From: an uncultured Thermoanaerobaculia bacterium
GTDB lineage: Bacteria > Acidobacteriota > Thermoanaerobaculia > Multivoradales > Multivoraceae
DNA length: 64,000 nt
Reading direction: 5' to 3'
Assembly: GCA_951813015.1 (NCBI GenBank)
Contig: CATOTG010000002.1
Coordinates: 325,310 to 389,309, forward strand
Positions 29,292 to 55,635 of this stretch are shown piece by piece. The position numbers were made by a program, and so were the translations under genes. The stretch's first letter is position 1. Every line of letters starts with the position of its first letter. The notes below the pieces were generated by a model, which made no database searches, had not been told where the DNA came from, and saw only the letters and a program-made list of their open reading frames with translations.

Positions 29292-30539
29292 ATGTACAGG
29301 TTCCCGACCTACGTTCCAGTCGCCGCGCGACGCGCCAAGGCAGCGCGCAAGGTCGCCAGTCTCCGCAAGCAGGGGAAGAAGGTCCAGCCAGTCGAGATCA
29401 CGGGCAACCTGATCGCCCGGAGCTTCTGGGGCAAGCGCTGGTGCAAGCGCATGGAGTCTTTCTCCGACTACCGCAACCGACTGCCGCGGGGCCGCAGCTA
29501 CGCGCGCCACGGGGCCGTCTGCGACCTGGCCATCCGGGCCGGCCGGGTCGACGCGCTGGTCTTCGGTACCAGGCTCTACCGCGTTTCCATTCGCATCGAA
29601 GGGCTCAAGCCGGCAATCTGGAAGTCGATCAAGACAAAATGCACCGGACAGATCGGTTCCGTCCTCGAACTGCTCCAGGGGAAACTGTCCGATCAGGTGA
29701 TGGACGTGGTCACGGATCGCCGCCGCGGTCTGTTCCCGACCCCGCGCCAGATCGAATTCGATTGCAACTGCCCGGACTGGGCGGGCATGTGCAAGCACGT
29801 GGCTTCCGTCCTGTACGGCGTCGGCAACCGCCTCGACGACAGCCCTGAACTCCTCTTCCTGCTGCGCAAGGTCGACGAATCGGAGTTGATCGATGCCGAG
29901 ATGGCGCTGCCGGCCGGCGCGGCGGGGACGGATTCCCTCGAGGAAGGCGACCTGTCGGGCATCTTCGGCATCGACCTGGACACGGACGATGCGCCGGCTG
30001 CCCGCTCCCGACCGCGGAGGAAGGCGTCGCGCAACGCCCGCGAACGCAGCGCTTCGCGAACCACGAACCCGCGGAAGCGCACCGGCAAGAGGGGCGCCGC
30101 GAGAAAGAGCGCCGCGACGAAGGCCTCCGCACGGAAGCGCGCTTCGACGAAGACCTCCGGGCGCAAGCGCGCCGCGAAGAAGGCCCCGGCGGCGCCGCCG
30201 CCGTTCCGCCCCACCGGCGCCCGGGTGCGCGGTCTCCGTCGGCGCAGCCGCATGTCGGTGGCCGACTTCGCCGCCACACTCGGAGTTTCGCCGGCAACCG
30301 TGCGCCGCTGGGAGTCCGCGCGCGGCCCGCTCACCCCTCAGGTCCGCCTCGCACGACGCGCTGCAGACCCTGAACGAACAGATCGGGACAGCCGGCAGAT
30401 AGCTGCCGCCGTCGTCGCCGGGAACTCGCCGCGAAGCTCGCAGGCAAGTCGCGTCGGCCGGCTTCAGACGGGCGCCGAACCGACCGTCGTGCTCCCGCGA
30501 CCGGCCAGTCCCCTGACCCGGTACGCTCGGCTCGCATGA
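29292..30539 (+). CDS. SWIM zinc-finger protein (SNF2 partner) with HTH segment and a Lys/Arg/Ala-rich histone-H1-like tract
   Basis: 415 aa. SWIM motif CNCPDWAGMCKHVASVLY. Basic tract KRTGKRGAARKSAATKASARKRASTKTSGRKRAAKKAPAA. HTH-like MSVADFAATLGVSPATVRRWE. The stop overlaps the next gene as ATGA. Confidence 0.75.
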   Translation: MYRFPTYVPVAARRAKAARKVASLRKQGKKVQPVEITGNLIARSFWGKRWCKRMESFSDYRNRLPRGRSYARHGAVCDLAIRAGRVDALVFGTRLYRVSIRIEGLKPAIWKSIKTKCTGQIGSVLELLQGKLSDQVMDVVTDRRRGLFPTPRQIEFDCNCPDWAGMCKHVASVLYGVGNRLDDSPELLFLLRKVDESELIDAEMALPAGAAGTDSLEEGDLSGIFGIDLDTDDAPAARSRPRRKASRNARERSASRTTNPRKRTGKRGAARKSAATKASARKRASTKTSGRKRAAKKAPAAPPPFRPTGARVRGLRRRSRMSVADFAATLGVSPATVRRWESARGPLTPQVRLARRAADPERTDRDSRQIAAAVVAGNSPRSSQASRVGRLQTGAEPTVVLPRPASPLTRYARLA

Positions 30540-33500
30540 CGCCCCGCCCCCGCCCGCTCCCCACTTCCCACTTCCCCGGCGAACTCCCCGAACACGACCC
30601 GGAGGTCGGGCAACTCGTTCATGTCCGCAGCCGCCGCTGGCTGGTCGAGCACGTCCGGCCCGGCGAGAGGCCCGGCGAATCCTCGATCGTCCGCCTCGCC
30701 TGCGCCGAAGACGACGCCCAGGGCGAGGAGATCGAGGTCTTCTGGAAGGTCGAGATCGACCGCTGCATCCTGAAGCAGGAAGGCTGGGGCGAACTCGCCG
30801 CGAGAGGATTCGACACGCCGCGCCGGTTCGCCGCCTTCCTCCACACGCTGCGCTGGAACTGCGTCACCGCCACCGACCCGGACCTGTTCCAGGCGCCCTT
30901 CCGCGCCGGCATCAAGCTGGACGCCTACCAGATGGAGCCGCTGCGCAAGGCGCTTCGAATGCCGCGGGTCAACCTCTTCATCGCCGACGACACCGGACTG
31001 GGGAAGACGATCGAGGCCGGCCTGATCGCCCGCGAACTTCTGCTCCGCAAGAAGGTCCGGACGATCGTCGTCTCCGCGCCGAGTTCCGTCCTCGAACAGT
31101 GGCAGGCCGAGATGGAGGAGCGCTTCGGACTGCTGTTCGAGATCCTCGACCGCGCGTACTTCACCCGCATTCGGCGCGAGCGCGGCTTCGGCGTCAACCC
31201 CTGGAAGACCCACAGCCGCTTCCTGGTCTCCCACAACCTGCTCCGGGATCCGACGTACGCCGATCCGATGCGGGCCTGGCTCGGCCCGGTGCTCCGCGGC
31301 AGCCTGTTTATTCTCGACGAAGCACACCACGCGGCGCCTTCGAGCGGCGGACGATACGGCATCGAGTCGAAGTTCACTCGCGCGATTCGGGACCTGAGCC
31401 ACCGCTTCGAGCACCGCCTCTTCCTCTCCGCGACGCCGCACAACGGCCACTCGAACAGCTTCTCCACCCTCCTGGAGCTGCTCGACCCCCATCGATTCAC
31501 ACGCGGAGTCAACGTCCGCAGGGAGTCTCTGGACGCGGTCATGGTGCGCAGGCTCAAGGAGGACATCCGCGAGGTCCAGGGCGGGTTCCCAAGGCGCAAC
31601 GTGGCGCCCGTCAGGATCGAGAGCCTTCCCGAACACCAACCGGAACTCGAACTGTCCCGACTGCTCGACGAGTACCGGGCAGTCCGCGCGGAGAGGTTCA
31701 AGACGGCAACCAGCAGCGCCCGGGCCGCCTCCGGCCTGCTCGTCGTCGGCCTGCAGCAGCGCCTGCTGTCGTCCATCGAGGCGTTCGCGGTCAGCCTGCA
31801 GACCCACCGCAAGACGGTCGCTCGGCAGCGCGACCAGGAACTCCAGCAACAGGCCGGCGCCGCGACGACCGCCCGCGCCAAAACGGAAGCTCAACTCTTC
31901 GTCTCGACATCCGGGGCAACCGGCGCCGACGGCGACCAGGAGGACGAAGCGGCGTGGACCTCGGAGGAGGAAGCCGAGCGGGAAGAAGAGCGGCAGATCG
32001 AGACGATCACCGCCGCGTCGGAAGCAGCCGCGATTTCCGCCGTCAACGGCACAACGACCGAAGCGACGGGCGAGGAACTCTGGCAGCGCGGGAACGCCCT
32101 CCTGGACCGCATGGAGCAGGTCGCCGCGCAAGCCCGTGGCCGGCCCGACGCGAAGACGCGCCGTCTCGTCGACTGGATTCGCGAGAACCTCTGCCCCGAC
32201 CTCCCGCCGCTCGGAACGGCGTTGCCGCCAGGTACGCCGCCACCGCGCTGGAACAACCGGCGGCTGCTGATCTTCACGGAGAACCGCGTGGGCACGAAGC
32301 GCTACCTCCGCAACATGCTGGAGAGCGCCATCGCCTGCTCCGACCGAGCCGAAGATCGCATCGTCACGATCGACGGCCACACCCGCGGCGCCGCCCGGCG
32401 CGAGATCCAGCGCCGGTTCAACGCCGAGCCCGAAGACGATCCGCTGCGCATCCTCCTGGCGACCGACGCCGCCCGCGAGGGACTGAACTTTCAGGCCCAC
32501 TGCACGGACCTGTTCCACTTCGACCTGCCATGGAATCCCGGCCGCATCGAGCAGCGGAACGGTCGCATCGACCGCAAGCTCCAGCCGGCCAGCGAAGTCA
32601 ACTGCCGCTACTTCGTTCTGCCTCAGCGGGCCGAGGACCGCGTACTGGAGGTCCTCGTCGAGAAGACGGAGACGATCCGAAAGGAACTCGGAAGCCTGTC
32701 CAGGGTGATCGACGACCGGATCGAACGTCGCCTGAACAGCGGCGGCATACCCCACGGCACGGTCGACCGACTCGCGGCCGAGATCGCGGCAGCCGATCTT
32801 GAGGTCGAGCGCAAACGCGTCGCCGCCGAGGAACTGGAGAGCGCCCGCCAGCGCCGAAGCGACCTCCAGGACCAGATCAACCGCTGCCAGACCCTGCTCC
32901 AGAACTCGCGAAAGTGGGTCCAGTTCGACGTCGAGCCGTTCCGGGACGCGCTTTCCTGTTCGCTCGAGCTGCTGGGCGCAAAGCCGCTGCAAGCGACGCG
33001 GAACGAGAACCGCGAAACGATCTGGACCTTCCCCGCCCTCGACGGCCAGACCTCCGCCGACCCCACCTGGGCACGCACCCTCGACTCCCTGCGCCGGCCG
33101 CGGCGGCGCAATCAGAAGCTCACCGACTGGCGCAAGGAGCAGCCGCCCCGCCCCATCGTGTTCGAAGACGCCGGCGTGCTGACCGACGAGACGGTCCACC
33201 TGCATCTCGAACAACGGGTAGCGCAGAGGCTCCTCGCTCGCTTTCGCTCCCAGGGCTTCCTTCACCACGACTTGTCGCGCGCCTGTCTCGCCCAAGCCGC
33301 CGACTCGATCCCCAGAGTCGTCCTCCTCGCCCGGCTGTCTCTCTACGGCAGCGGCGCCGAACGGCTGCACGAGCAGGTCATCACCGTGGCCGCGCGCTGG
33401 GTCGAACCGTCGCGCCGCACGGCGCCGCTGAGGGCCTACGCCCGTGACGCGGAACAACGCACGCTCGACCTGCTTGAAGCGTCCCTTGCCGGAACGAGCA

Positions 33501-33922
33501 GACGACCGGTGAACGAGGTTGTAGCGCAGAGGCTCCTGAACGCCGCAGCGCGCGACATAGAGGAACTGCGTCCTCAGCTCGAACCACGAGCCAGGGAACT
33601 CGCCGCAGTCGCGACAAAGCGGCTCCAGGAGCGCGGCGAGCGAGAGTCTCGTGAACTGCGCGCGATTCTGAAACAGCAGCGCCAGCGGGTCCGCGACGAA
33701 CTGCAACTGAGAGACAACCAGTTCGTTCAGCGCACACTCGCCTTCAACCGCGACGAAGAGCGGCAGTTGCAGGCCGACATGCGTTCCTGGCGCACGCGAC
33801 TGGAGCAATTCGACCGCGACCTGGAGCACGAACCCCAACGCATTCGCAACTTCTACGAAGTCCGCGTAGCGCCGCCCGTCGAACCGCTGGGCATCGTCTA
33901 CCTGTGGCCGGAGACGAACTGA
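30536..33922 (+). CDS. SNF2-like superfamily-2 helicase (DISARM DrmD-like)
   Basis: 1128 aa. Motif I LFIADDTGLGKTIEAG, DEAH box ILDEAHHA, LSATPHNG, motif VI QRNGRIDRKLQ. It lies directly upstream of a large N6-adenine methyltransferase. Confidence 0.7.
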   Translation: MTPRPRPLPTSHFPGELPEHDPEVGQLVHVRSRRWLVEHVRPGERPGESSIVRLACAEDDAQGEEIEVFWKVEIDRCILKQEGWGELAARGFDTPRRFAAFLHTLRWNCVTATDPDLFQAPFRAGIKLDAYQMEPLRKALRMPRVNLFIADDTGLGKTIEAGLIARELLLRKKVRTIVVSAPSSVLEQWQAEMEERFGLLFEILDRAYFTRIRRERGFGVNPWKTHSRFLVSHNLLRDPTYADPMRAWLGPVLRGSLFILDEAHHAAPSSGGRYGIESKFTRAIRDLSHRFEHRLFLSATPHNGHSNSFSTLLELLDPHRFTRGVNVRRESLDAVMVRRLKEDIREVQGGFPRRNVAPVRIESLPEHQPELELSRLLDEYRAVRAERFKTATSSARAASGLLVVGLQQRLLSSIEAFAVSLQTHRKTVARQRDQELQQQAGAATTARAKTEAQLFVSTSGATGADGDQEDEAAWTSEEEAEREEERQIETITAASEAAAISAVNGTTTEATGEELWQRGNALLDRMEQVAAQARGRPDAKTRRLVDWIRENLCPDLPPLGTALPPGTPPPRWNNRRLLIFTENRVGTKRYLRNMLESAIACSDRAEDRIVTIDGHTRGAARREIQRRFNAEPEDDPLRILLATDAAREGLNFQAHCTDLFHFDLPWNPGRIEQRNGRIDRKLQPASEVNCRYFVLPQRAEDRVLEVLVEKTETIRKELGSLSRVIDDRIERRLNSGGIPHGTVDRLAAEIAAADLEVERKRVAAEELESARQRRSDLQDQINRCQTLLQNSRKWVQFDVEPFRDALSCSLELLGAKPLQATRNENRETIWTFPALDGQTSADPTWARTLDSLRRPRRRNQKLTDWRKEQPPRPIVFEDAGVLTDETVHLHLEQRVAQRLLARFRSQGFLHHDLSRACLAQAADSIPRVVLLARLSLYGSGAERLHEQVITVAARWVEPSRRTAPLRAYARDAEQRTLDLLEASLAGTSRRPVNEVVAQRLLNAAARDIEELRPQLEPRARELAAVATKRLQERGERESRELRAILKQQRQRVRDELQLRDNQFVQRTLAFNRDEERQLQADMRSWRTRLEQFDRDLEHEPQRIRNFYEVRVAPPVEPLGIVYLWPETN

Positions 33923-33980: not shown

Positions 33981-36900
33981 ATGCCGAAGCTCGACGCGAA
34001 CACAAGAGCCCACCTCGAGTGGCTCGGCTTCGTCCGGCCGACCGGCCTCGTGGTGTCGCCGCCGGCGCTCAACAAGGCCGGCGCCGTGCTGGAACGGGCC
34101 GATCGGGAGGGCCAGCGGCTGCTTCGCGACGCGGTATCCGAGCGGGAGTTCAAGCCCGGCGAAGGTCGCCAGCCCTGGCTGCCCGCCTTCGAGGACTTCG
34201 CCCGCTCGGTCCTCGGCTGGCGCTTCTCTCCCGCGGGCTACGCGGGCGGGAACGCGGCGCCGATTCCCGACGAACTGAGCCTTCACCTTCCGGACTGCGG
34301 CGAGACCCTCCGACCCGACTTCGCGGTCCGCGAACGAAGCCCGGACGAGGATGGCTCGCGCTGGCAACTGCTCGTGCAGACCGTCGAACCGGGCCAGAGC
34401 TTCGACCGCGCGGTCTCCGGCGCCGGCAAGCTGGAAGCCTCCCCGCACAGCCGCATGGAACGCCTGCTGCGAGCGAAGGCGGTTCCCGCCGGGCTGCTGT
34501 TCAACGGCCGCGCCTTGCGCCTCGTCTCGGCGCCGCGCGGCGAGACTTCCGGCTGGATCGATTTCCAACTCGCCGACATGCTGCTTGTCGCGGGCCGCCC
34601 GATCTGCACGGCCCTGCGCCTGCTCCTGAACGAGCAGCGGCTGCTCGCCCTGCCCAGGCGCCAGCGACTGGCTGCGCTTCTCGCGGACAGCCGCAAGTAC
34701 CAGAACGAGGTCAGCGAACGCCTGGCCGAGCAGGTCCTGCATGCCCTCTACGAACTGCTGCGCGGCTTCCAGGCGGCGCACGACGCGTCGAGAAAGGAAC
34801 TCCTGGGCGACCAGTTGCGCGAGGATCCGGGCGGCATCTACCACGGCCTTCTCACCGTGGTGCTGCGCCTGGTCTTCCTGCTCTACGCCGAAGAGCGCGA
34901 TCTCCTCTCCGAAGACGCAACCTTCGTCCGCCACTACTCCCTGGCCAGTCTCCACGACCGGCTGCGGGCCGACGCGGCGCTTCACCCCGACACGATGGAC
35001 CAGCGCTACGGCGCCTGGGCCCAGTTGCTGGCGCTGTTCCGCATGATCCACAACGGCGCCGCAGCCGCCGGCCTCCGCCTCCCGCCACGGCACGGCGTGC
35101 TCTTCGATTTCGACCGCTTTCCGTTCCTGGAGGGTCGGCCCCCGGGAAGCGTGGCCCAGAACCACGAGCGCGTCGCGGCGCCGCTCGTATCCGACGGCAC
35201 GGTTCATCGCGCTCTGGAGAAGCTCCTCGTGCTCGACGGCGACCGCCTCTCCTACCGCGCGCTGGACGTCGAGCAGATCGGCTCCGTCTACGAAACGATG
35301 ATGGGCTTCCGCCTCGAACGCGCCGAGGGACCTTCGTGCGCGATCAAGCCGGCCAAAAGGCACGGCGCGCCCGCCACGGTGAACCTGGCAGCGCTGCTCG
35401 AAAAACCAGTCGATCGGCGCGTCCGCTGGTTCCGCGAACGGACCGACCGCAGGCTGACCGACAAGGCCGCGAAGGCGCTACGGAACGCCCGGACGATCGA
35501 CGAACTTCACGCCGGCCTCGACCGCGTGATCGACCGCGCCGCGACCCCCGACCTGGCGCCGAACGGCCACATGATCCTCCAACCGAGCGATGAACGCCGA
35601 CGCTCGGGCTCGCACTACACGCCGCGCGAACTCACCGAACCGATCGTCCGGGACACCCTGGAACCGATCCTCGACCGGCTGCGAGGGCGAGCCGCGGGAA
35701 GCGCGGGCCAGGGACAGGCAACACCGGCCGCCCTGTCGGCGCCCGCTGAACACGGATCGCGAGTACGTAGCCCACGTCATCAGGGACCGGCAACAGCGCC
35801 CGACCTGTCGGCGCCCGGGCCTTCCGGACCGCATCCGGCTCCGACGACACGAACGCCTCGGCCGGAACAGATCCTCGGGCTCAAGGTCTGCGACCCGGCG
35901 ATGGGCTCCGGCGCCTTCCTCGTCGAAGCCTGCCGTCAACTCGGCGACGTCCTGGTCGACTCCTGGCACGCCCACGACGCGGCGCCGCCCATCCCGCCCG
36001 ACGAAGACGAAACCGTCCACGCCCGGCGTCTCGTCGCCCGCAACTGCCTCTACGGCGTAGATCGCAATCCCGTCGCCGTGGACCTGGCGAAGCTCTCGCT
36101 CTGGCTGACCACCCTCGCCAGGGACCATCCCCTGACGTTCCTCGACCATGCGCTTCGCCACGGCGATTCCCTGGTCGGCCTTGCGCCGGAACAGATCCAG
36201 GCCTTCCACTGGAAGGGCAAGGAGAAGCGCTTCCAGGCCGGCATCGAGACGACCTGGATTCGAGAGCAGGTCAAGAAGGCGTTGCGCCTGAGACGGGCGA
36301 TCCAGGAGGCGCGCGACGACACGCCGGACCGGGTGCTGCGCGATCGGCTGGACGAGGCGGAACACGAACTGGCTCGGGTCAAGCAGAACGGCGATCTCGT
36401 CGTTGCGGCCTTCTTCGAATGCCAGAAGCCGAAGGACCGTGAAGCCCTGCGCCGGTCGTTCGCCGCCGAACTTCAGTTCGAGACTGCGAGCGGCTCAGGG
36501 GGCAAGCCATCGTCCCGGCCTGGCGATGACGCACAAGCATCCGTTCCGGCTTCCGTCTCGGGTCACTCCGGCATGACCGGCCGCATCCGCGCCTCCCGCT
36601 CGGACGCGATCTCGACCATCGGTTGGCTGGAGGAAAGCCGAAACGGCGACCCGCCTCTGGCGCCGTTTCACTGGGCAATCGAGTACCCCGAGGTCTTCCT
36701 GCTTGAAGAGCGCGAGAATCCCGGCTTCGACGGGATCGTCGGCAACCCGCCGTTCGCCGGCAAGAACACGATCGGCAACGCGAACGTACCGGGCTACAAG
36801 GCTTGGCTGAAGCAGCTCCACGAAGAAAGCCACGGCAACGCGGACCTTGTCGCCCACTTCTTCAGGCGCGCGTTCACGCTGGTTCGCGCAGGCGGCGCCT

Positions 36901-38495: not shown

Positions 38496-38639
38496 GAAGC
38501 CTGGACCGCCCTAGGTCCAGGTCCGATCACGTCGCGGCCCCGCTTTGCAGTCACCCCTGCCCGTGTGAGAGAGTTGTCCGCAGCAAGCCGACCGGCCCAC
38601 CAGTGCCGACACCTCCCTCGCCTTCCCGCGCACCCCGCC

Positions 38640-39635: not shown

Positions 39636-39644
39636 GTCAGGCCA

Positions 39645-44832: not shown

Positions 44833-44868
44833 GCAGGCTCTCCAGGTGCCGGGCCTAACGCATCGCCA

Positions 44869-44898: not shown

Positions 44899-44983
44899 AA
44901 AGCGCAACTAGGGCGTAACCGGAGCCGCACCATCCAAGCTCTTTGCGGAACAGGAGCGGGAGGACCGCCCGCCCGCCGGGAAG

Positions 44984-46019: not shown

Positions 46020-46116
46020 TACAGCGAAGAGCGCGAGAGGTCGAGCAGACGGCACTGGCGGAAAAGGCTCAACGCCTCTTCGTCCCGCTTCACCATCCGC
46101 CTGCGCTCGGGCCGGC

Positions 46117-46431: not shown

Positions 46432-46508
46432 CGTTCAGGGTTGGACGCGAAGAGTGAGGTGGTGAGCGCGGTTGACGCCCGCCGCACCCATGTGTCACAT
46501 TTGTGCAC

Positions 46509-46748
46509 ATGGAACAGATCGGCATTCGCGAACTCCATCTGAAGACCGGCGAGTGGGTGCGGCGAGCCGCCAGAGGACGGGGCGTCGTCGTCACGGAGCG
46601 TGGCCGCCCGGTGGCTTCGCTTCTACCGTTCCGCGAAGACGCACTGGGGGTTTCCTTCGCCGACCGTCAACTGCTGCCCGAGTTCGAGGCCCTGCCGGAG
46701 ATCCGCGGCGACTCGGCCGCGGGTATCTCGGAGGACCGGGACCGCTAG
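46509..46748 (+). CDS. Type II antitoxin, Phd/YefM family
   Basis: MEQIGIRELHLKTGEWVRRAARGRGVVVTERGRPVASLLPF. 79 aa. Followed immediately by a PIN-domain gene. Confidence 0.7.
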   Translation: MEQIGIRELHLKTGEWVRRAARGRGVVVTERGRPVASLLPFREDALGVSFADRQLLPEFEALPEIRGDSAAGISEDRDR

Positions 46749-47191
46749 TGGCGTACTTCGACACCGCCTATCTGGTCAAGTGCTACGTGAAGGAGGAAGG
46801 GTGGGACAGCGTCCGAGCGTTGGCTGCCGAGCGCGGCTGGGTTGCCTGCTCGGTGTTTGGGCGCCTGGAGCTGCACGCGGCGCTGCACCGGACATTCCGT
46901 GAGGGTCGCCTCACACGAAGGGAGCTTGAGGTCGTCCTCGATCAACTGAGCGCCGACGAGGCGATGAGAATGTGGCACTGGCTGCCGCTCTCCGCGGCGG
47001 TGAGGACGGCGGTAGTTGACCTGTTCGGGCAGCTTGCACCGGGAGTCTTCCTGCGAACCGGGGACGCGGTCCACCTGATGTCGGCCAGGGAGAGCGGCTT
47101 TCGGGAGGTCTTCAGCAATGACCGACGCCTCCTGGCGGCGGCACGGCACGTCGGCATCACCGGCGTGGATGTCATCGGAGGGCGCCAGTGA
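46748..47191 (+). CDS. vapC: Type II toxin VapC (PIN domain)
   Basis: GTG 46748 overlaps the antitoxin stop as taGTG. PIN acidic residues VAYFDTAYLVK...; 147 aa. Confidence 0.7.
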   Translation: MAYFDTAYLVKCYVKEEGWDSVRALAAERGWVACSVFGRLELHAALHRTFREGRLTRRELEVVLDQLSADEAMRMWHWLPLSAAVRTAVVDLFGQLAPGVFLRTGDAVHLMSARESGFREVFSNDRRLLAAARHVGITGVDVIGGRQ

Positions 47192-47201
47192 GAAAGTCCG
47201 A

Positions 47202-47417
47202 GTGAGCGAATCGAACGACCGGGACGCCACGGCGCAGACGTCCGTCGAGGTCCGCGAGGACATCGTCGACGCCCTCAAGGTCGACCTCGTCGGCCCCGGC
47301 GCCGGCCACGAACTCGCGCGCGAGCGGTTGCCCGCAAACGAAGCGCCCTCGAAGTGGCATCTCGCCGGCTTCCTGATTCCATCCGGCACGCCGCCGGTTA
47401 AGCGGCTCAACTGCTGA
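47202..47417 (+). pseudogene. Diverged 5' fragment (about 70 codons) of a drmA paralog
   Basis: VSESNDRDATAQTSVEVREDIVDALKVDLVGPGAGHELARERLPANEAPSKWHLAGFLIPSGTPP aligns, at about 60% identity, with the N-terminus of the 1141-aa drmA at 49396 (MSEPNNHDAAAVTSLDVRRTLVEAIELDLIGPWRGHELARERLPVFEAPSNWYLTGFLIPTGTPP). It ends in a stop after 71 codons. Confidence 0.55.
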
Positions 47418-47591
47418 CGCCTACCGTCAGACAGCCATCGTTGCGCCCCCCAACGACTAGACTCGCCGCATGAGCGGGCGCGACCTCAGGAGCCCCAAGC
47501 CGACTGCAAGGCGCGTGGTTCACCGCACCGCCTCCAGTCAGTCGGTCGTCAGAGCCCGACGGTCCCGCCAGCGCGGCCCCAGAGATCCAGC

Positions 47592-48797
47592 GTGACCGCC
47601 GACCGCCGCCTGTTGACTCGCGTTGCCCTCCGCAACTACAAGAGCATCGCCGCATGCGACGTGTCGCCAGCGAAGCTGTGCTTCCTCGTAGGTCCGAACG
47701 GCTCCGGCAAGAGCAACTTCCTCGACGCGCTTCGGTTCATCGCCGAGTCTCTTCGGTCTTCGATGGATCAGGCGCTGCTCGCACGCGGAGGCATCAACGA
47801 GGTGCGGCGGCGCTCTGGTGGCCACCCGACGCACTTCACCATCCGTGTCGAGTTCGCCCTCGACGCATCGCGAGGCCACTATGCGTTCACTGTCGGGTCC
47901 AAACGCCAGGCCCGCTACCAGGTCCAGCGCGAAGAGTGTCTCGTCGTACCGACGAACGGGCAGAGCGCTCACTTCTTCAAGGTCGAGAGCGGGCGAGTTA
48001 CCAAGACGACCCTCTCGCCAGCGCCAGCGGCACTGCCCGATCGCCTGTACCTTGTGAATGTCTCCGGTCTCAAGGCGTTTCGGCCCGTCTACGACGCCCT
48101 CTCGAGGACTGGCTTCTACAACCTGAACCCGGCAGCCATACGCGACCTTCAGCCGCCCGACACGGGCGAACTCCTCAAGCGGGACGGGAGCAACATCGCA
48201 AGTGTCCTGGCCAACCTCGCCACGAGTTCGCCTCCGTCAAAACGGAAGATCGAGGAGTACCTCGGGACCGTCGTTCCTGGCATGGCGGGCGTCGGTCGTC
48301 ATCGGCTCGGTCCCAGAGAGACGCTCGAGTTCCGGCAGGAGGTGCGCGGTGCGGAGCATCCCTCGCGCTTCCTCGCCAACAACATGTCCGACGGAACGCT
48401 TCGCGCACTCGGCCTGCTCGTCGCACTCTTTCAGGGCGCGAGCAACGGCGCCGCAGGGCCCGGACTGGTGGGCATCGAAGAGCCGGAAGTCGCGCTTCAC
48501 CCCGCAGCCGTGGAAGTCCTCATCGATGCGCTGCTTGACGCTGCTGAACACGCCCAGATCCTCGTCACGAGCCACAGCACCGAACTGCTCGATCACCCGG
48601 AAATTCGGGACGACTCGATCCTTGCCGTGGTAGCAGAGCACGGCGAGAGCCGCATCGGTCCGCTGGACGAGGTTGGGCGGTCGGCGTTGAAGAAGCACCT
48701 CTTCACCGCCGGCGAACTGCTCAGAATGAACCAACTCGATCCGGATCCAGTGCTCTCGAAACCCGGGCAAATCAGGCTCTTCGGTCCCGAGCCCTAG
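47592..48797 (+). CDS. AAA_21/SMC-like ATPase (OLD/AbiL-type ATPase component)
   Basis: 401 aa. Walker A FLVGPNGSGKSNFLDAL. ABC-type signature and Walker B LVGIEEPEVALHP. Typical of two-gene ATPase plus Toprim-like systems. Confidence 0.7.
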   Translation: MTADRRLLTRVALRNYKSIAACDVSPAKLCFLVGPNGSGKSNFLDALRFIAESLRSSMDQALLARGGINEVRRRSGGHPTHFTIRVEFALDASRGHYAFTVGSKRQARYQVQREECLVVPTNGQSAHFFKVESGRVTKTTLSPAPAALPDRLYLVNVSGLKAFRPVYDALSRTGFYNLNPAAIRDLQPPDTGELLKRDGSNIASVLANLATSSPPSKRKIEEYLGTVVPGMAGVGRHRLGPRETLEFRQEVRGAEHPSRFLANNMSDGTLRALGLLVALFQGASNGAAGPGLVGIEEPEVALHPAAVEVLIDALLDAAEHAQILVTSHSTELLDHPEIRDDSILAVVAEHGESRIGPLDEVGRSALKKHLFTAGELLRMNQLDPDPVLSKPGQIRLFGPEP

Positions 48798-48799
48798 CC

Positions 48800-49399
48800 G
48801 TGCTCACGATCGCCTCCATCGTGGAAGGTCACGGTGAAGTCGCGGCCCTGCCGATCCTTCTGCGGAGGATCGCGGCAGTGGTAGCGCCCGAAGAACCCAT
48901 CTCCGTGCCCCGACCCATCCGGGTAAAGCGGCAACTCGTAGTGAAACCCGGAGAGTTGGAGCGGTATGTCGAGGTTGCCGCGAGCCGAGCCGGTGCCGGA
49001 GGAGCAATCCTGCTCGTGCTGGACGCCGATACCGACTGTCCGGCTGAACTCGCCGTCGAGTTGTGCCGGCGCGCCCGAGCCGCACGGGCGGACCGTGCCA
49101 TCCGCACCGTACTGGCCAAGGCGGAGTACGAGTCGTGGTTCGTCGCCGCGGTCGAGTCGATTGCGGAACGGCCGCTGCACGCTGTCGCACCGCCGCCCGA
49201 TCCAGAGTCGATCAGGGACGCCAAGGGCTGGTTGAGTCGAAACGCGCTGGCTCACGGAACCTACCGCCCCACACGCCACCAGGCCAGATTCACTGCTGCC
49301 TTCGACCTGAGCGCCGCGCGGTCGGCGCCCTCGTTCGACAAGCTGTGGCGTGACGTAACCTCCCTGCTCGTTCCGCCGGCAACGATCATCTCCGAATGA
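48800..49399 (+). CDS. DUF4276-family protein (Toprim-like partner of the AAA_21 ATPase)
   Basis: 199 aa (IVEGHGEVAALPILLRRI...LVLDADTDCP...KAEYESWF). GTG 48800 sits 2 nt after the ATPase stop. Its own stop overlaps the drmA start as ATGA. Confidence 0.55.
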   Translation: MLTIASIVEGHGEVAALPILLRRIAAVVAPEEPISVPRPIRVKRQLVVKPGELERYVEVAASRAGAGGAILLVLDADTDCPAELAVELCRRARAARADRAIRTVLAKAEYESWFVAAVESIAERPLHAVAPPPDPESIRDAKGWLSRNALAHGTYRPTRHQARFTAAFDLSAARSAPSFDKLWRDVTSLLVPPATIISE

Positions 49400-52300
49400 G
49401 CGAACCGAACAACCACGACGCTGCGGCCGTGACGTCTCTCGATGTCCGCCGGACCCTCGTCGAAGCGATCGAACTCGACCTCATCGGCCCATGGCGAGGT
49501 CACGAGCTTGCCCGGGAGCGGCTGCCGGTTTTCGAGGCGCCATCCAACTGGTACCTCACCGGCTTCCTGATTCCGACCGGAACGCCGCCGGAACTGAGCC
49601 GGGACGACGAGCAGGACGACGGCGGGCCTGACGAGACGCCCGAGCGACCCGGCCTCGCCGAGGAATCGACGGAGGGCCGGATGGCAGCGAAGAAGCTCTT
49701 CTTCCCTTCCTCGATGGGTCTGAGCTTCCTCGCAACCGCGGACAGCCGGCTCGATGTCTCCGTTCGCTGGGGCGACTACGAACTGGTCGCAACCGCCACC
49801 GATGCTGTGGAAGGCGACGGCGGCAACGACAAGGCCGGGGCGCAATACTGGCAGCGGAACACCGGAGAGGAGACCGTGGAGATCGCCCTCCAGATAGCGA
49901 CGGAGGAGCCCGTCCACGACGTACCCGGCTCGGGCGGGCTGAGACTTCACGTCGAGCAGAGGCCCATCTCCCAGATCGCCTCCATCCCCGAAGGCACGCG
50001 GGCTGTCAGCGTGTTCCTCGTGAACGAGCGGGAGCCTGCGACTTCGCTCCAGGACACCGAGCCGACCTACGCGTTCCAGGCCGAAGTCGAGATCCGCAGC
50101 GAACAGCCGTTCGTGCCGAGACCGGACCCACGCTCGGCGGAGACCGATGACTGGGATGAACAGGTCGCGGCCCTTCACTACCTGGACGCCCCGAGCTACG
50201 CCACCGGTCACAACGTCGGCGCCACCTGGGACGTCGACAGCGACGGGAAGTGCCGGAAGATCCGCACGACCTGGATGCCCCGGGCAGAGGTCGAGAAGAC
50301 GGAGACCAGCGAACCGGACGGGGTCGACCTGTCGATGGACCGGCTCGGCCAGCTTGCCGGCGCCGACGATGCGGACAGGACCCTGCGACCGCTCGTCGCC
50401 GCTTACCGCGAGTGGATCAACGAACAGCGCAGGGCGCTCGAGGAAGTTCCCGAAGAGCACGCGGAGACCGCGGTCGAACTCCTCGATCAGGCCAAGTTCG
50501 CCGCCTCGCGGATGGAGCGAGGGGTCGAGGCGCTCCAAAGCGACGAACAGGCACTCGACGCCTTCCGCCTGGCGAATCGCGCCGTGGCCCAGGCTCTTCG
50601 GCGCCGAACCCCTGAGGTCTTCGAAGATGCAGCGCCCCGATGGCGGGCATTCCAGCTCGCCTTCATCCTGCTGAACCTCGCGCCGCTCGCGGACCCCACC
50701 GACCCGCACCGGGAGATGGTCGACCTGCTCTTCTTTCCCACCGGCGGCGGCAAGACGGAGGCCTACCTGGGTCTCGCCGCCTTCGCGATCGTACTGAGGC
50801 GGCTCCGGAATCCGGAGGCGGGCGGGCGGGCAGGCGCGGGCGTCTCTGTTGTCATGCGCTACACGCTGAGGCTGCTGACCCTCGATCAACTCTCGCGCGC
50901 CGCGGGCCTGATCTGCGCGCTGGAACTGGAGCGGGCCGACGCGCCCGAGCGCTACGGCGAGTGGCCGTTCGAGATCGGCCTGTGGGTCGGCAGGGCGGCG
51001 ACGCCGAACCACATGGGGCGAAAGGGCGCCGAACCGCCCGGTTCCGCCCGCCAGAAGGTGCGGCGCTTCAAGGCGAAACCCGGCTACGAGCCGTCACCCG
51101 TCCCCATTGAGGACTGCCCCTGGTGCGGTACGAAGTTCGAGCCCAGCTCCTTCACGCTGCAACCGAACGACGACGAGCCGACCAACCTGCGCGTGATCTG
51201 CGCAAACTGGGAGTGCGAGTTCTCCGGCGACCGGCCGCTCCCCATCGTCGCCGTCGACGAACCGTTGTACCGCCGCCTGCCCTGCTTTCTCGTTGCCACG
51301 GTGGACAAGTTCGCGGCCCTGCCGTGGGAGGCCCGCGCCGGCGCGCTCCTCGGCGGCGCCGACCGACACGATGCGGAGGGCTTCTACGGCGCGGCGGCGC
51401 CGAGCCGGGGCCAGCCGCTGCCCTCGCCCCTGCCGCCGCCCGACCTCATCGTCCAGGACGAACTCCACCTGATCTCCGGACCCCTGGGGTCGATGGCCGG
51501 CCTCTACGAGACGGCGGTCGAGGCGCTGGCGCTCCGCGGTTCCGGCAGCCGCGGCGCGAAACCGAAGATCGTCGCCTCGACCGCCACCACCCGGCGGGCG
51601 CAGGAACAGATCCGGGCCCTCTTCGGCCGTCAGATGACCCGCGTCTTCCCGCCGCTCGGACCGTCGCGGCGCGACTCGTTCTTCTCCCAGGTCGTACCGG
51701 CGAGCGTGAAGCCGGCTCGGCTATACCTCGGCATCGCGTCGCCGGGCAGGAATGCGAAGGTCCAGATGCGGCGCGTTCTGCTGCCGCTGATGGCGGCGGC
51801 GCAGCAGGCCTTCCGGAACGCGGGCGGCCACGACAACGAGAACAACGCCGCCGACCCGTACATGACGGTGCTTGCCTACTTCAACAGCCTTCGCGAACTC
51901 GGCGGTGCGCGGCGCATCGTCGAGGAGGAGGTCCAGAACACTCTGGGCCGCTACGGAGCAAGGCGCAGACTGAACCAGGAGAGGAGGTACTTCCGCGATC
52001 GCGGGCGTCTCTACGAGCCGCTGGAGTTGACCTCCCGGGTCTCGACGGCCCAGGTCGCCGCTGCGCGACGGCGGCTTGGTCAGCCTTTCCATGCGACGGA
52101 CCGGGTCGACGTGGCCCTGGCGACGAACATGATCTCCGTCGGCCTCGACATCCAGCGACTCGGGCTCATGGTCGTCATGGGTCAGCCGAAGACGACCGCC
52201 GAGTACATCCAGGCGACCAGCCGAGTCGGCCGCGCAGACGCGAAGCCCGGTCTCGTCATCACCCTGCTCAACGCCCACAAGCCGCGCGACCGCTCCCACT

Positions 52301-52821
52301 ACGAACGCTTCCGGCACTACCACGAGACCTTCTACCGCGCGGTCGAGGCTGGAAGCGTCACGCCGTTCGCGGCCCGGGCGTTGGACCGGGGAATGGCCGG
52401 AACCCTCGTCGCGCTCGCTCGGCACGCGGAACCGTCTCTGACGCCGGCCACCGCTCCGCCAGGGCTCGCCGAGGTCCGCGCGCAGCTCGAGGCACTGCTC
52501 CTCGATGCGTTCTCCGAGCGGCTCAGCCGCCAGAACATGCCGGAAGCCGAGCGGGAAGAGAAGCTCGGCTCGGTTCGTCGGCGCGTAGGCGACCTGCTCG
52601 ACTCCTGGCAGTACGTCGTGGACGACTATCGGGACACCGGCACCGCGGTGAAGTACCAGCAGTACGAGCGGGAGCAGGGCAAACCACTGCTCCGCGAGAT
52701 GTTGGACACGGACTTCGAGTCACCCCATCACAAGAAGTTCCGCGTCAACCGCTCGCTTCGTGACGTGGAGCCCCAAGTGAACCTGTTCATCACGAAGCCG
52801 GCCGGTGGCGGAGCGGATTGA
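49396..52821 (+). CDS. DISARM DrmA-like helicase
   Basis: 1141 aa. Helicase motif I LFFPTGGGKTEAYLGL, DExH-like DELHLISGP, helicase C region and a Zn-ribbon CPWCGTKF...C. Followed by DUF1998 and PLD genes with overlapping start/stop codons. Confidence 0.65.
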   Translation: MSEPNNHDAAAVTSLDVRRTLVEAIELDLIGPWRGHELARERLPVFEAPSNWYLTGFLIPTGTPPELSRDDEQDDGGPDETPERPGLAEESTEGRMAAKKLFFPSSMGLSFLATADSRLDVSVRWGDYELVATATDAVEGDGGNDKAGAQYWQRNTGEETVEIALQIATEEPVHDVPGSGGLRLHVEQRPISQIASIPEGTRAVSVFLVNEREPATSLQDTEPTYAFQAEVEIRSEQPFVPRPDPRSAETDDWDEQVAALHYLDAPSYATGHNVGATWDVDSDGKCRKIRTTWMPRAEVEKTETSEPDGVDLSMDRLGQLAGADDADRTLRPLVAAYREWINEQRRALEEVPEEHAETAVELLDQAKFAASRMERGVEALQSDEQALDAFRLANRAVAQALRRRTPEVFEDAAPRWRAFQLAFILLNLAPLADPTDPHREMVDLLFFPTGGGKTEAYLGLAAFAIVLRRLRNPEAGGRAGAGVSVVMRYTLRLLTLDQLSRAAGLICALELERADAPERYGEWPFEIGLWVGRAATPNHMGRKGAEPPGSARQKVRRFKAKPGYEPSPVPIEDCPWCGTKFEPSSFTLQPNDDEPTNLRVICANWECEFSGDRPLPIVAVDEPLYRRLPCFLVATVDKFAALPWEARAGALLGGADRHDAEGFYGAAAPSRGQPLPSPLPPPDLIVQDELHLISGPLGSMAGLYETAVEALALRGSGSRGAKPKIVASTATTRRAQEQIRALFGRQMTRVFPPLGPSRRDSFFSQVVPASVKPARLYLGIASPGRNAKVQMRRVLLPLMAAAQQAFRNAGGHDNENNAADPYMTVLAYFNSLRELGGARRIVEEEVQNTLGRYGARRRLNQERRYFRDRGRLYEPLELTSRVSTAQVAAARRRLGQPFHATDRVDVALATNMISVGLDIQRLGLMVVMGQPKTTAEYIQATSRVGRADAKPGLVITLLNAHKPRDRSHYERFRHYHETFYRAVEAGSVTPFAARALDRGMAGTLVALARHAEPSLTPATAPPGLAEVRAQLEALLLDAFSERLSRQNMPEAEREEKLGSVRRRVGDLLDSWQYVVDDYRDTGTAVKYQQYEREQGKPLLREMLDTDFESPHHKKFRVNRSLRDVEPQVNLFITKPAGGGAD

Positions 52822-54665
52822 TGGCCAAGGCCAAGGGAACAGGTGCGCCTACCGGCAGCATTCGCCGCAGTCAGGTCATCACGACCTACGGACCGGGCGC
52901 ACTGATCGACCTGCCCCACGACTCCGCCATCGTCGGCGGGCTGGATTTCTGGCCACGGCATGGTTCTCTCGAGCAGATAGACGAACCCAGGCTCAGCGCC
53001 AGGCTGCGCAGCCTGACGGGCGGCACGCTGCCCGCCCTCCACGCCCCGCCCGCCGCTTCGGACCGGCCCGGCGACGCCTCGGCCGGCATCGACGCGCCCC
53101 GGTTCCCCGAGTGGTTCGTCGTGCAGCGGGAGAAGTCCTCAGCCGACCATCAGGGCGGCCGCCGTTCGCGCCGCCTGGTTCAACGCAAGTCGCTCGACGA
53201 ACGACGCAAATTCAAGAACCTGGTCCATGGCGGCCAGCCGGTCGTCGCGATCCGCTTCGTGCGCGGCTGCCCGCGCGGCCATGTCGACGACATCGACTGG
53301 TGGAGCTTCGTCCACCGCGGCGTGACGGACTGCCGGGGCGAACTGGGAATCGAGGAACAGGGCACCGGCGGAGACCTCTCGAACCTCTTCGTTCGCTGCA
53401 GTTGCGGCAACTCGCGGGGGCTGCACGAAGCCAAGGAGATGGCCGACCGGCCGCTCGGTCACTGCAGCGGCGCCCGACCGTGGCTGGGCCGACACGCCAA
53501 CGAGGAGTGCGGCGAGCCGGCGCGGCTGCTGATCCGGACCGCCACGAACGCGTGGTTTCCGCAGATCGTCACGGTGCTCTCGCTGCCGAAGCCGAGCGAG
53601 GCGGTCGACGGCATCGTCGCCGAACTGTGGGACGACCTGGAGATCGTCACCGAGCAGGACGAACTTCGGTTCCTGAAGAAGAAGCCGAGAGTCGAGGCCG
53701 CCCTGCACGGCGTCGACGACGCCGACGTGCTCGCGGCAATCGAACGCCGAAAGGCGGGCGACCCGGACGACCGACCAGTCAAGCTCGCCGAACTGGACGC
53801 CCTGCTGAAAGCGCCGGAAGGCTACGACGACGACGTGCCGGTCGACGACCGATTCCACGCCCGGCGCCTGCCAGAGTCCGTATGGCGGGAGGGTGCACGG
53901 CCCTTCGCGGACCGGATAGATGCCGTCGTGCAGGTTCACCGCCTGCGCGAGGTTTCGGCACTCACCGGTTTCACCCGCTTCGAGGCGCCGACACCGGACA
54001 TCCTGGGGGAGGTCGACACGGATGTGGAGCGCGCCGCGCTCGCGCTGGAGCCCGCCTGGTTCCCGGCCGTGGAGAACCGGGGCGAAGGCGTCTTCGTCCA
54101 GTTGGCGACCACAGCCGTTGCGGAGTGGTGCGGCCGCGAGGATGTCCAGATGCGCTGCGCCACTCTGGCCGCGGGCCACGAGCGCCGTGAAGCGGAACGA
54201 CCGACGAGTGCGAAGCGGCGGCCGTTTCCGGGCGGCCCCTACATCCTCCTGCACACGCTGTCTCACCTGCTGATCACGTCCCTGGCGCTGCGCTGCGGTT
54301 ATCCCGCGGCATCGATTCGGGAGCGCGTCTACGTCGACGAAGTCGCGAAGAGGTACGGACTCCTCCTCTACACCGCCAGCGCCGACGCCGAGGGAACGCT
54401 GGGCGGCCTCGTACAGCAGGCCCGGACCATCGGAGAGCATCTCCGCCACGCTCTCCTCCTCGGCCAGCTCTGTTCGAACGACCCGGTCTGTGCCCACCAC
54501 CGACCCGACCACAGCGCCGAGAAACGGTGGCTTCACGGCGCCGCCTGCCACGGCTGCACGCTGATCGCCGAGACCTCCTGCGAGACGCGGAACGACCATC
54601 TCGACCGCAGCCTGGTTGCGCGGATCATCGGCGGCGGCGCGGGCTTCTTCGGTCCGATCGAGTGA
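52821..54665 (+). CDS. DISARM DrmB-like protein (DUF1998)
   Basis: ATG 52821 overlaps the drmA stop as TGATG. N-terminal SQVITTYGPGALIDLP and C-terminal four-Cys cluster CSNDPVC...CHGCTL are typical of DUF1998. Confidence 0.65.
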   Translation: MAKAKGTGAPTGSIRRSQVITTYGPGALIDLPHDSAIVGGLDFWPRHGSLEQIDEPRLSARLRSLTGGTLPALHAPPAASDRPGDASAGIDAPRFPEWFVVQREKSSADHQGGRRSRRLVQRKSLDERRKFKNLVHGGQPVVAIRFVRGCPRGHVDDIDWWSFVHRGVTDCRGELGIEEQGTGGDLSNLFVRCSCGNSRGLHEAKEMADRPLGHCSGARPWLGRHANEECGEPARLLIRTATNAWFPQIVTVLSLPKPSEAVDGIVAELWDDLEIVTEQDELRFLKKKPRVEAALHGVDDADVLAAIERRKAGDPDDRPVKLAELDALLKAPEGYDDDVPVDDRFHARRLPESVWREGARPFADRIDAVVQVHRLREVSALTGFTRFEAPTPDILGEVDTDVERAALALEPAWFPAVENRGEGVFVQLATTAVAEWCGREDVQMRCATLAAGHERREAERPTSAKRRPFPGGPYILLHTLSHLLITSLALRCGYPAASIRERVYVDEVAKRYGLLLYTASADAEGTLGGLVQQARTIGEHLRHALLLGQLCSNDPVCAHHRPDHSAEKRWLHGAACHGCTLIAETSCETRNDHLDRSLVARIIGGGAGFFGPIE

Positions 54666-54720
54666 CGATGTACCGGGCCGCACCTCCGCCGGCATCGGCG
54701 ACCGGCACGACCGGGCGAAG

Positions 54721-55635
54721 GTGCTTAGGCAGCACAGGCAGTCATTTGCCGCCGACCCGCCCACGGAACAGCAATCCAGGAGGTTGCCGGACCTGCCTGC
54801 CTTCTCGCGGAAACCGCCTGACCGCAAACCGACAGGCGTGAACGAGCAGGCATTCAACGCTCTGATCGAACTTCCGGCGCATCTCCGGAGCTCGCTGGCG
54901 GCCGCGCTGGACGCAGGTCTGCTCCGGTTCGACTCCACCGCGACGGCCGTTCGGGCCAACCTGTCGCCCGGGGCCGACCGGGAGGGGCAGGTGCTCCGAC
55001 TGCTCGGCGCCTGGCGGCGGCTCGGTCTCTCCGAACCAGCGGCCGCCGCGTGGCTTCGAAGCCTGAACCGACTCGCGGGCGCCTCCCCGGGCCCCGACTT
55101 CGTGTGGTCCGGGCCGGAGGTTCCCGGCCTTCACGCCCGCGACACGCGGCGTGTCTACGACGAGGTCATCGGCGCGGCGTCCCGGTCGATCTGGGCGTCC
55201 ACGTACGCCTTCTTCGACGGGGAACGCGCCTTCAGGGTTCTGGCCGAGAAGATGGACGCACTGCCCGCCCTCGACGTCACCCTGCTGCTGAACATCCACC
55301 GCGGACGCGGCGTCACGACCGCCGCGGACCATCTTGTTCGCAGCTTCGCGGACAGCTTCTGGAAGCGAGAATGGCCCGGCGCCGCGCGGCCCACCGTGTT
55401 CTACGACCCGCGCTCAGTGGAACCGGATGGTCCGAAGGGCGTTCTCCACGCGAAGGCCGTCGTGGCCGACGAAGAAGTCGTCTTCATCACCTCGGCCAAT
55501 TTCACTGAAGCGGCGCTCGACCGCAACATCGAGACCGGTCTCGTGTCCCGGGACCGTCACCTTGCCCTGACCGCCGTCAGGCACTTCAGGGCGCTGATCG
55601 ACCGCAAGCTGCTGCTGCCTCTGCCGATGGACTGA
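54721..55635 (+). CDS. DISARM DrmC-like phospholipase-D-family nuclease
   Basis: HKD motif GVLHAKAVVADEEVVFITSANFTEAALDRN. Start is uncertain: GTG 54721 or GTG 54838. The ORF track begins it at 54616, overlapping drmB. Confidence 0.6.
   Translation: MLRQHRQSFAADPPTEQQSRRLPDLPAFSRKPPDRKPTGVNEQAFNALIELPAHLRSSLAAALDAGLLRFDSTATAVRANLSPGADREGQVLRLLGAWRRLGLSEPAAAAWLRSLNRLAGASPGPDFVWSGPEVPGLHARDTRRVYDEVIGAASRSIWASTYAFFDGERAFRVLAEKMDALPALDVTLLLNIHRGRGVTTAADHLVRSFADSFWKREWPGAARPTVFYDPRSVEPDGPKGVLHAKAVVADEEVVFITSANFTEAALDRNIETGLVSRDRHLALTAVRHFRALIDRKLLLPLPMD

Follow-up and report, generated by a model that had tools for sequence, protein, structure and literature searches.

A class 1 DISARM locus with defence and toxin-antitoxin cassettes at its drmMI/drmA junction in an uncultured Thermoanaerobaculia bacterium

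Gene content of the DISARM locus

We analysed a stretch of 64,000 nt from an uncultured Thermoanaerobaculia bacterium (GCA_951813015.1, contig CATOTG010000002.1, positions 325,310-389,309, forward strand), hereafter the window, in which a complete class 1 DISARM locus is found. The five genes of this system, drmD, drmMI, drmA, drmB and drmC, are intact and all lie on the plus strand, with drmMI and drmA set 10.9 kb apart by other genes and gene relics. Class 1 DISARM was reportedly described by Ofir et al. in 2018. As the G+C content across the region is high (62-72% per kb), many spurious open reading frames (ORFs) overlap the real genes, and genes in the window were chosen on the basis of family matches and third-position G+C (GC3). 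The predicted proteins were searched with PADLOC, NCBIfam (curated cut-offs) and Pfam profile models and compared with structures from PDB entries. The core genes are as follows (coordinates of the window, strand, description):

30536-33922, plus strand: drmD, SNF2-like helicase (PADLOC PDLC02621, E = 4e-302; NCBIfam DISARM_DrmD NF038317, 1022 bits against a cut-off of 610)
33981-38495, plus strand: drmMI, 1504 aa, MmeI-like gamma-class N6-adenine methyltransferase (PADLOC DrmMI, E = 0, 1308 bits)
49396-52821, plus strand: drmA, DExH helicase of the short form, 1141 aa (NCBIfam NF038325, 1157 bits against 950)
52818-54665, plus strand: drmB, DUF1998/MZB protein (NCBIfam DrmB_fam, 554 bits against 240; Pfam MZB), its start overlapping the drmA stop
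54838-55635, plus strand: drmC, PLD-family nuclease, 265 aa from its most likely start (NCBIfam DISARM_DrmC_I, 166 bits against 133)

A first-pass annotation, made from the sequence alone, had proposed a drmD-like SNF2 helicase at 30536-33922, a drmMI-like methyltransferase of 1504 aa at 33981-38495, and drmA, drmB and drmC within 49396-55635, all on one strand. Each of these identities was borne out by the profile models, four Drm proteins scoring above their NCBIfam cut-offs and the methyltransferase fitting the PADLOC DrmMI model (NCBIfam has no model for DrmMI). The ORF at 49396 is a genuine DrmA: the NF038325 match spans residues 17-1131 and model positions 1-1164 of 1165, that is, its full length, and comparison with the solved Serratia DrmA (PDB 7S9V) gave an E value of 4.5e-168. 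Only the start of drmC had to be revised, as all close homologues are 265 aa long, so that translation most likely begins at the GTG at 54838 and the proposed start at 54616 is too early. The expected motifs were located in DrmD (GLGKT at residue 154, DEAH at 261), in DrmA (GGGKT at 450, DELH at 688) and in DrmC (HKD motif HAKAVVAD, of the form HxKxxxxD, at residue 278 of the long ORF). Thus DrmA, a DrmB adjoining drmA, a PLD-type DrmC, an SNF2-like DrmD and DrmMI are all present, while a single contiguous locus or operon is not; no drmMII was found among the genes annotated in the locus. The GC3 values are 0.84-0.86 for the drm genes and 0.72-0.78 for the intact genes lying between drmMI and drmA. 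The spacer between drmB and drmC carries an insertion of about 80 bp (54684-54764) with respect to two related loci, L083 and L084 (related loci are denoted by L and a number).

The nature of the methyltransferase bears on a different explanation, according to which the locus would consist of two independent neighbours: a type IIG/ISP-like or methylation-only module made of DrmD and DrmMI, and an orphan effector module made of drmABC, co-transcribed with HEC-01AB, the gene pair directly upstream of drmA. The first-pass annotation had put forward a simpler form of it, an independent type ISP/IIG-like system next to an orphan drmABC. Such an explanation draws on MmeI, a type IIL enzyme (structure 5HR4), with which DrmMI is collinear in its methyltransferase and target recognition domains. 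The scores, in contrast, clearly favour DrmMI, since the protein reached 1308 bits with the DrmMI model, whereas the best type IIG model gave 561 bits and PADLOC PglX only 32 bits; the NCBIfam PglX models gave 25-39 bits against cut-offs of 400-900 (39 bits against 500). Pfam MmeI_N scored 24.6 bits, under its cut-off of 27. Where a PD-(D/E)xK nuclease motif would be expected by our own placement, a region in which the MmeI structure did not align, the N-terminus reads RPDFAV...WQLLVQT and no E-x-K was apparent by eye, which would tell against a type IIG enzyme. The methyltransferase motifs DPAMGSG (motif I, residue 638) and NPPF (motif IV, residue 922) are invariant in the family alignment. 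On scores and gene content, BREX PglX, type IIG and ARMADA were rejected as the identity of the methyltransferase or of the whole system.

Two further features of drmMI were observed. An in-frame, low-complexity hypervariable linker (37397-37663) is 106 aa long in the window, against 27 aa in most relatives and a maximum of 191 aa; a swap of the target recognition domain, considered as the cause of the 76% query coverage of DrmMI homologues, was rejected, as the drop in coverage is mostly due to this linker. After the linker lies a divergent patch (37500-37999) with 73% DNA identity to locus L003, within a block that is otherwise 94-99% identical. As this patch is where the MmeI-type target recognition region begins, the window and L003 strains may methylate different motifs.

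Arrangement and co-inheritance of the two halves among relatives

DrmMI has more than 6000 strong homologues, the closest of which belong to metagenome-assembled genomes of Thermoanaerobaculia (Acidobacteriota), while exact-sequence look-ups with DrmA and DrmMI returned no match. The proteins of the window were mapped onto 80 DrmMI loci with 10-kb flanks, 66 of which were informative. These 66 loci distribute as follows: (i) in 10, among them those of Anaeromyxobacter oryzae and Alkalispirochaeta alkalica, the order is drmD-drmMI-drmA-drmB-drmC with at most 400 bp between drmMI and drmA, (ii) in 33, the drmMI/drmA junction holds 1.6-9.8 kb (median 4.8 kb), (iii) in 6, drmABC lies upstream of drmD-drmMI, and (iv) in the remaining 17, there is no drmA within 10 kb of drmMI, 6 of these 17 being also devoid of drmD. 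The split layout is therefore the commonest in this DISARM subfamily and strict contiguity is not a property of it, contrary to the first-pass annotation, which had taken the class 1 gene set to be normally contiguous. The gap of 10.9 kb in the window stands at the upper end of the range visible with 10-kb flanks.

With regard to the independence of the two halves, the 17 loci without a neighbouring drmA, and the lack of drmD in six of them, are what one would expect of separable modules. Against this, drmA is found within 10 kb of drmMI in 49 of the 66 loci and is on the same strand in every one of the 49, with the 10 tight arrangements among them, so that the co-occurrence anticipated for a single system is indeed seen. 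Moreover, the divergences of DrmA and DrmMI are correlated (Mantel r = 0.76 overall and 0.74 in split loci alone) to nearly the same extent as those of the adjacent pair DrmD and DrmMI (r = 0.79); the halves thus appear to co-diverge about as tightly as two neighbouring genes.

A position-specific association was also noted in that ietA, usually accompanied by ietS, is the first gene after drmMI not only in the window but also in six further loci (L004, L024, L035, L047, L054 and L073), which come from Vicinamibacterales, Thiotrichales, Pseudomonadales, other Gammaproteobacteria and Spirochaetia; the association therefore recurs across phyla. Elsewhere in the sample, L065 (6833-19297) carries three tandem copies of drmMI.

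Cargo of the junction, its turnover and its surroundings

The interval between drmMI and drmA (38496-49395, 10.9 kb) contains thirteen features, nine intact genes and four relics. Seven of the nine intact genes are co-oriented with DISARM, the TcmP and DUF5131 genes being on the opposite strand. The features, together with the composite insertion that encloses some of them, are given below:

38565-39635, plus strand: ietA, AAA+ ATPase (PADLOC IetA, E = 2e-93; Pfam AAA)
39645-42008, plus strand: ietS, S8 subtilase (PADLOC IetS, E = 8e-257, full length; Pfam Peptidase_S8)
42094-42291, plus strand: 3' relic of a PDC-M11A-like gene, last 66 codons (68% aa identity to the C-terminus of L002:14382-16559)
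42294-42782, plus strand: ASCH gene (PDC-M11B), its partner gone (Pfam ASCH; PADLOC PDC-M11B, E = 6.5e-30)
42999-44156, minus strand: TcmP, three-Cys-motif partner, PDC-M30A/M41A-like (NCBIfam TIGR04474, 156 bits against 53; PADLOC PDC-M30A, E = 3e-17)
44107-44832, minus strand: DUF5131 gene, Gp37/Gp68 family, PDC-M30B/M41B (Pfam DUF5131, E = 5e-95; PADLOC PDC-M41B, E = 4e-101)
44833-47597, no strand: composite insertion, 2.76 kb between DUF5131 and HEC-01A (257 bp in L084 by blastn)
45381-46019, plus strand: C-terminal fragment of a DUF222-type HNH endonuclease, pseudogene (Pfam HNH at aa 53-94; last 46 DUF222 positions only)
46117-46431, minus strand: remnant of an IS3-family OrfA (Pfam HTH_Tnp_1, E = 7e-9)
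46503-46748, plus strand: vapB-like Phd/YefM antitoxin (Pfam PhdYeFM_antitox, 23.7 bits, under the cut-off of 29.8; a 100% identical gene in L083)
46748-47191, plus strand: vapC, PIN-domain toxin, 147 aa (Pfam PIN; an identical 147-aa gene in L083/L086)
47202-47396, plus strand: drmA 5' relic, first 65 codons of a different drmA allele
47592-48797, plus strand: HEC-01A, ABC-type ATPase of the AAA_21 family (PADLOC HEC-01A, E = 1.6e-159; Pfam AAA_21)
48800-49399, plus strand: HEC-01B, TOPRIM-like DUF4276 protein (PADLOC HEC-01B, E = 3e-67; Pfam DUF4276)

IetAS is a known defence pair, and the two genes found here, 9 nt apart, make up such a pair; HEC-01 is likewise represented by both its ABC-type ATPase and its TOPRIM-like DUF4276 partner, the HEC-01B stop overlapping the drmA ATG by 4 nt, as it also does in L084. 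Every gene that the first-pass annotation had named in this interval was recovered at or near its coordinates; what it had overlooked is the PDC-M11A-like relic at 42094-42291, and the start it had assigned to the ASCH gene did not stand. The counterpart of the relic in L002 is a GNAT protein of 725 aa with a PDC-M11A match (E = 6e-12), and a PDC-M11A-like gene is the usual partner of the ASCH gene. Given the gene calls in L001 and L002 and the stop codon of the relic, the most likely start of the ASCH gene is near 42294, and what precedes it in the longer ORF is a relic of another gene. The true start of TcmP is probably near 44093; its orthologue in L001 was called at 364 aa. The DUF5131 gene is kept at the same position in L002, L007, L008 and L084.

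The 2.76-kb insertion comprises the HNH fragment, the IS3 OrfA fragment, vapBC and the drmA 5' relic. A 1.15-kb segment of it that includes the HNH pseudogene (44935-46085) is absent from L003; inside this segment, at 45135-45290, are three tandem units of 66 nt, each with the palindrome CGTTCCCGCGGGAACG. No ORF for a transposase catalytic domain was present in the ORF lists beside the IS3 OrfA remnant, and a repeat search detected neither terminal inverted repeats nor target-site duplications framing the cargo or its sub-segments, so that no transposon-type mechanism could be assigned. The drmA relic shares 63% aa and 75% nt identity with the resident drmA, whereas it is 80% (aa) and 88.7% (nt) identical to the drmA of L006 and 85-87.5% (nt) identical to those of L002, L007 and L008. 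Being closer to the L006 allele than to its resident neighbour, it derives from a different allele, and the simplest explanation is that it was carried along with vapBC out of a second DISARM locus where vapBC lay directly upstream of drmA. A PIN gene directly upstream of drmA is found in L015. We also considered that the relic might be a local duplication produced by the insertion of HEC-01AB, and rejected this, as the relic is nearer to other alleles of the clade and L084 has HEC-01AB-drmA without any relic.

Within the Thermoanaerobaculia clade, the framework drmD-drmMI ... DUF5131 (minus strand)-HEC-01AB-drmABC is maintained, DUF5131 missing only from L006, and HEC-01AB persists next to drmA. 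In contrast, the slot after drmMI is variable: it is occupied by ietAS in the window and L003; in L002 by the PDC-M11A GNAT protein, the ASCH gene and two genes, of 245 and 754 aa, that give NACHT/STAND-type NTPase matches; in L007 by a pair of similar size (about 250 and 754 aa); and in L006 and L008 by genes on the minus strand, which in L006 include a CapP-like gene. The cargo of the clade has turned over at least three times while the DISARM halves stayed together, which tells against halves that are mere neighbours. The order in L084 is M11A-ASCH-TcmP-DUF5131-HEC-01AB-drmABC, with 86% identity to the window over HEC-01AB-drmABC. Compared with an order of this type, the sequence of the window indicates two changes, namely the replacement of most of M11A by ietAS, which left the 3' relic, and the gain of the insertion at 44833-47597; truncated gene ends such as these mark earlier cassette replacements. 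In L003, the closest relative, vapC is shortened to 44 codons and HEC-01B is reduced to its last 40 codons (21457-23245), both genes being intact in the window and in L083. L083 is an alternate contig of the metagenome that also yielded L001; its identity to the window is 98.5% across 45775-54683 and 97.3% across 54762-64000, so that the two have the right flank in common.

The left flank of the window (23695-30539), with acyl-CoA dehydrogenase genes, an SNF2 pseudogene and a helix-turn-helix (HTH) gene, matches L007 and L008, and a match of this flank to L006 was noted as well; the DISARM genes of these three loci are only 72-80% identical to those of the window. The DISARM-plus-cargo block, on the other hand, has 96% DNA identity to L003, which carries ABC-type ATPase and DcuC genes on its left side instead. 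As flank and block match different loci, an exchange is suggested in which the whole DISARM block, or its surroundings, was recently transferred or replaced, with a breakpoint near 30577. Neither tRNA genes nor Rfam matches were found in the window, which thus offers no tRNA-linked integration site.

Directly upstream of drmD, two features had gone unnoticed in the first-pass annotation, the first of which is:

29292-30539, plus strand: HTH gene, 415 aa (Pfam HTH_31 and HTH_3 at aa 309-367, a C-terminal XRE-type domain), its stop overlapping the drmD start codon

This gene is about 90% identical (aa) to L007:4703-5728, which is also directly upstream of drmD, and occupies the same position in L008; it is absent upstream of drmD in L001/L003, L002 and L006. 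Its product may be a regulator of the drmD-drmMI unit, although its membership of DISARM is uncertain. The second feature, at 26610-29285 on the plus strand, is an SNF2-type helicase pseudogene with DpdE and ZorD as closest PADLOC models, in which the best reading frame switches at least six times with respect to the intact orthologue of 1003 aa, L007:1674-4685. As the long DISARM genes beside it are free of frameshifts, this looks like real decay and not an assembly error. On the other side of the locus, the first gene after drmC, according to a 97%-identical annotated gene of L083, encodes a beta-lactamase-family serine hydrolase on the minus strand (55783-57126), and the plus-strand ORF at 55750-57105 is spurious.

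In four gene pairs (HEC-01A and HEC-01B, HEC-01B and drmA, drmA and drmB, and the HTH gene and drmD), the stop codon of the first gene overlaps the start codon of the second or lies very close to it. These overlaps, together with gene orientation and the minus-strand TcmP/DUF5131 genes in between, suggest at least two DISARM transcription units, which probably do not form one operon. The first would be (HTH gene?)-drmD-drmMI-ietAS-ASCH, and the second HEC-01AB-drmA-drmB followed by drmC, with TcmP/DUF5131 and debris between them. Separate transcription of the halves is also what two independent systems would display.

The relics raise another explanation, namely that repeated insertions have uncoupled and inactivated the system, the intact reading frames reflecting only an early stage of erosion in a junk-accumulating 'genomic sink'. 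Four gene relics in the gap, the frame-switching pseudogene immediately upstream, the loss of most of vapC and HEC-01B in L003, and interruptions of DISARM genes in relatives would all fit this explanation; in L017 (10252-11804) and L071 (13840-19236), drmMI contains an interrupting insertion, 1.5 kb long in the former and 5.4 kb in the latter, and in L041 (21230-22736) an IS3-like element interrupts drmB. In the window, however, the five long ORFs (265-1504 aa) are uninterrupted and retain their catalytic motifs, beside a pseudogene that shows what decay looks like here. Furthermore, the ratios of non-synonymous to synonymous substitution rates (dN/dS) against the 96%-identical L003 are 0.29 for DrmD, 0.41 for DrmMI and 0.32 for DrmA, and the framework is kept in relatives down to 72% DrmMI identity. 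Inactivation by decay thus appears improbable, and is the least probable of the explanations considered.

Interpretation and significance

We estimate at roughly 0.78 the probability that the locus is one class 1 DISARM, with a drmMI/drmA junction at which other defence and toxin-antitoxin cassettes land. In the class 1 DISARM of Serratia sp. SCBI, DrmMI methylates adenine in a specific motif, and deletion of either drmABC or drmD plus drmMI weakens defence (Aparicio-Maldonado et al., bioRxiv 10.1101/2021.12.28.474362). A trigger loop keeps the DrmAB complex autoinhibited; the complex loads onto DNA that has a 5' single-stranded overhang, and its ATPase activity is stimulated more by unmethylated than by methylated DNA (Bravo et al., PMC9142583). 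By analogy, DrmMI would mark host DNA with N6-methyladenine, the DrmAB helicase complex would load on incoming DNA with 5' single-stranded overhangs and be less active on methylated DNA, and DrmD and DrmC would assist. We infer from the gene content and from these precedents that the two halves in the window cooperate; their genetic separation need not stop joint function, because these proteins act in trans. IetAS, TcmP/DUF5131, VapBC and HEC-01AB are most likely independent extra layers, inherited and transferred along with DISARM.

Several points weigh against this interpretation. In Serratia, deletion of drmABC or of drmD plus drmMI leaves partial protection against some phages (bioRxiv 10.1101/2021.12.28.474362), so the modules are not strictly interdependent. 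Decay is evident in and around the locus, in the four relics of the gap, the upstream SNF2 pseudogene and the vapC and HEC-01B deletions of L003, and function may be lost without any ORF-breaking mutation. The 80 loci were sampled for their similarity to the DrmMI of the window and are thus a biased subset of DISARM systems, and part of the Mantel correlations could stem from common species phylogeny and not from linkage of the halves. Finally, the proposed transcription units rest on gene orientation and gain no support from a consensus scan of the gap, in which no promoter-like site was found and terminator-like sites were fewer than in shuffled sequence.

That each Serratia module remains partly protective when the other is deleted would also suit two independent neighbours. 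With the DrmMI scores, the co-occurrence on one strand, the co-divergence and the persistence of both halves through changes of cargo all standing against it, we nevertheless regard that explanation as unlikely. A single DISARM with a cassette-bearing junction also accounts for the first-pass suggestion of an operon that tolerates insertions between its modules. This suggestion is supported, the junction being split in half of the informative relatives, yet not as an exception, and the phenomenon was already on record in Payne et al. (bioRxiv 10.1101/2024.01.29.577857).

A bolder version of the single-system interpretation holds that the junction is a platform for cassette exchange and that HEC-01AB, instead of being a passenger, works together with DrmABC, perhaps as a guard of the PrrC type. 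Recombination at the conserved ends of drmMI and drmA, or in which these ends are transferred too, would pass cassettes from the DISARM loci of one lineage to those of another. Hints in this direction are vapBC accompanied by 65 foreign drmA codons, the 3' relic of a foreign drmMI that directly precedes HEC-01A in L027 (17890-18384), and the recurrence of ietAS at one position in seven loci from several phyla; HEC-01AB, for its part, is long-resident and shares overlapping codons with drmA. We consider this version doubtful, if somewhat less so than either of the two explanations opposed to a single working system; if true, DISARM would be a vehicle that spreads other defences.

Among known systems, the class 1 DISARM of Serratia sp. 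SCBI shares with the window the five-gene set, its order and its single strand, but lacks the 10.9 kb with nine foreign genes and four relics between drmMI and drmA, and its DrmA has 1325 aa against the 1141 aa of the short form found here. The SNF2-type helicase and adenine methyltransferase, combined with a YprA/DUF1998 helicase module, recall ARMADA II (armABCD; PMC13463889), unlike which the window has DrmA and DrmB as separate proteins and a PLD-type DrmC, with no UvrD-like gene found in the locus. Likeness to MmeI-family type IIL/IIG enzymes is confined to the collinear methyltransferase and target recognition regions, as DrmMI models score more than twice as high and the gene is consistently found with drmD and usually with drmABC. 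The codon-coupled HEC-01AB resembles PrrC of the EcoprrI type I restriction-modification system, in that a system of restriction-modification character encloses a module with an ABC-type ATPase; unlike PrrC, HEC-01 has a TOPRIM-like DUF4276 partner instead of an anticodon nuclease, and nothing here indicates that it senses DISARM inactivation.

A further parallel is with the embedded genes of Payne et al. (bioRxiv 10.1101/2024.01.29.577857), in which loci of Hma, BREX, DISARM and type I restriction-modification systems are reported often to hold embedded genes, from which the HEC and PDC candidates were derived; such genes are co-oriented with the host system in 96.7% of cases, 'genomic sink', linked transfer and back-up functions are discussed for them, and HEC-01 alone gave no protection in E. 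coli. The window conforms to this description, having foreign cassettes nested in a multi-gene modification-based system and belonging to the same families (HEC-01, PDC-M11, PDC-M30 and PDC-M41). It differs in that two of its nine intact cargo genes do not share the orientation of DISARM, co-orientation being a tendency and not a strict criterion, and in that one junction holds thirteen features, a larger and more layered set than the search window of that study, as described there, allowed. No description of cassette-replacement relics or of an imported foreign drmA end was found in the consulted sections of Payne et al. 2024. Judged against it, the locus is an instance of an already published embedding phenomenon, large and well resolved but not new in kind.

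These findings have practical consequences, as the commonest layout of the subfamily has kilobases of cargo inside, and rule-based detectors demanding near-contiguity could therefore miss or mislabel such DISARM systems. PADLOC returned no match for most cargo genes of the relatives, and the unannotated junction genes are a ready source of candidate defence genes. The locus is a clean system for asking whether embedded cassettes, HEC-01AB above all, hitch-hike or cooperate. Together with its relatives, it offers a nucleotide-resolution view of the assembly and turnover of a 'defence island inside a defence system', which leaves the current picture of DISARM unchanged and extends a published phenomenon.

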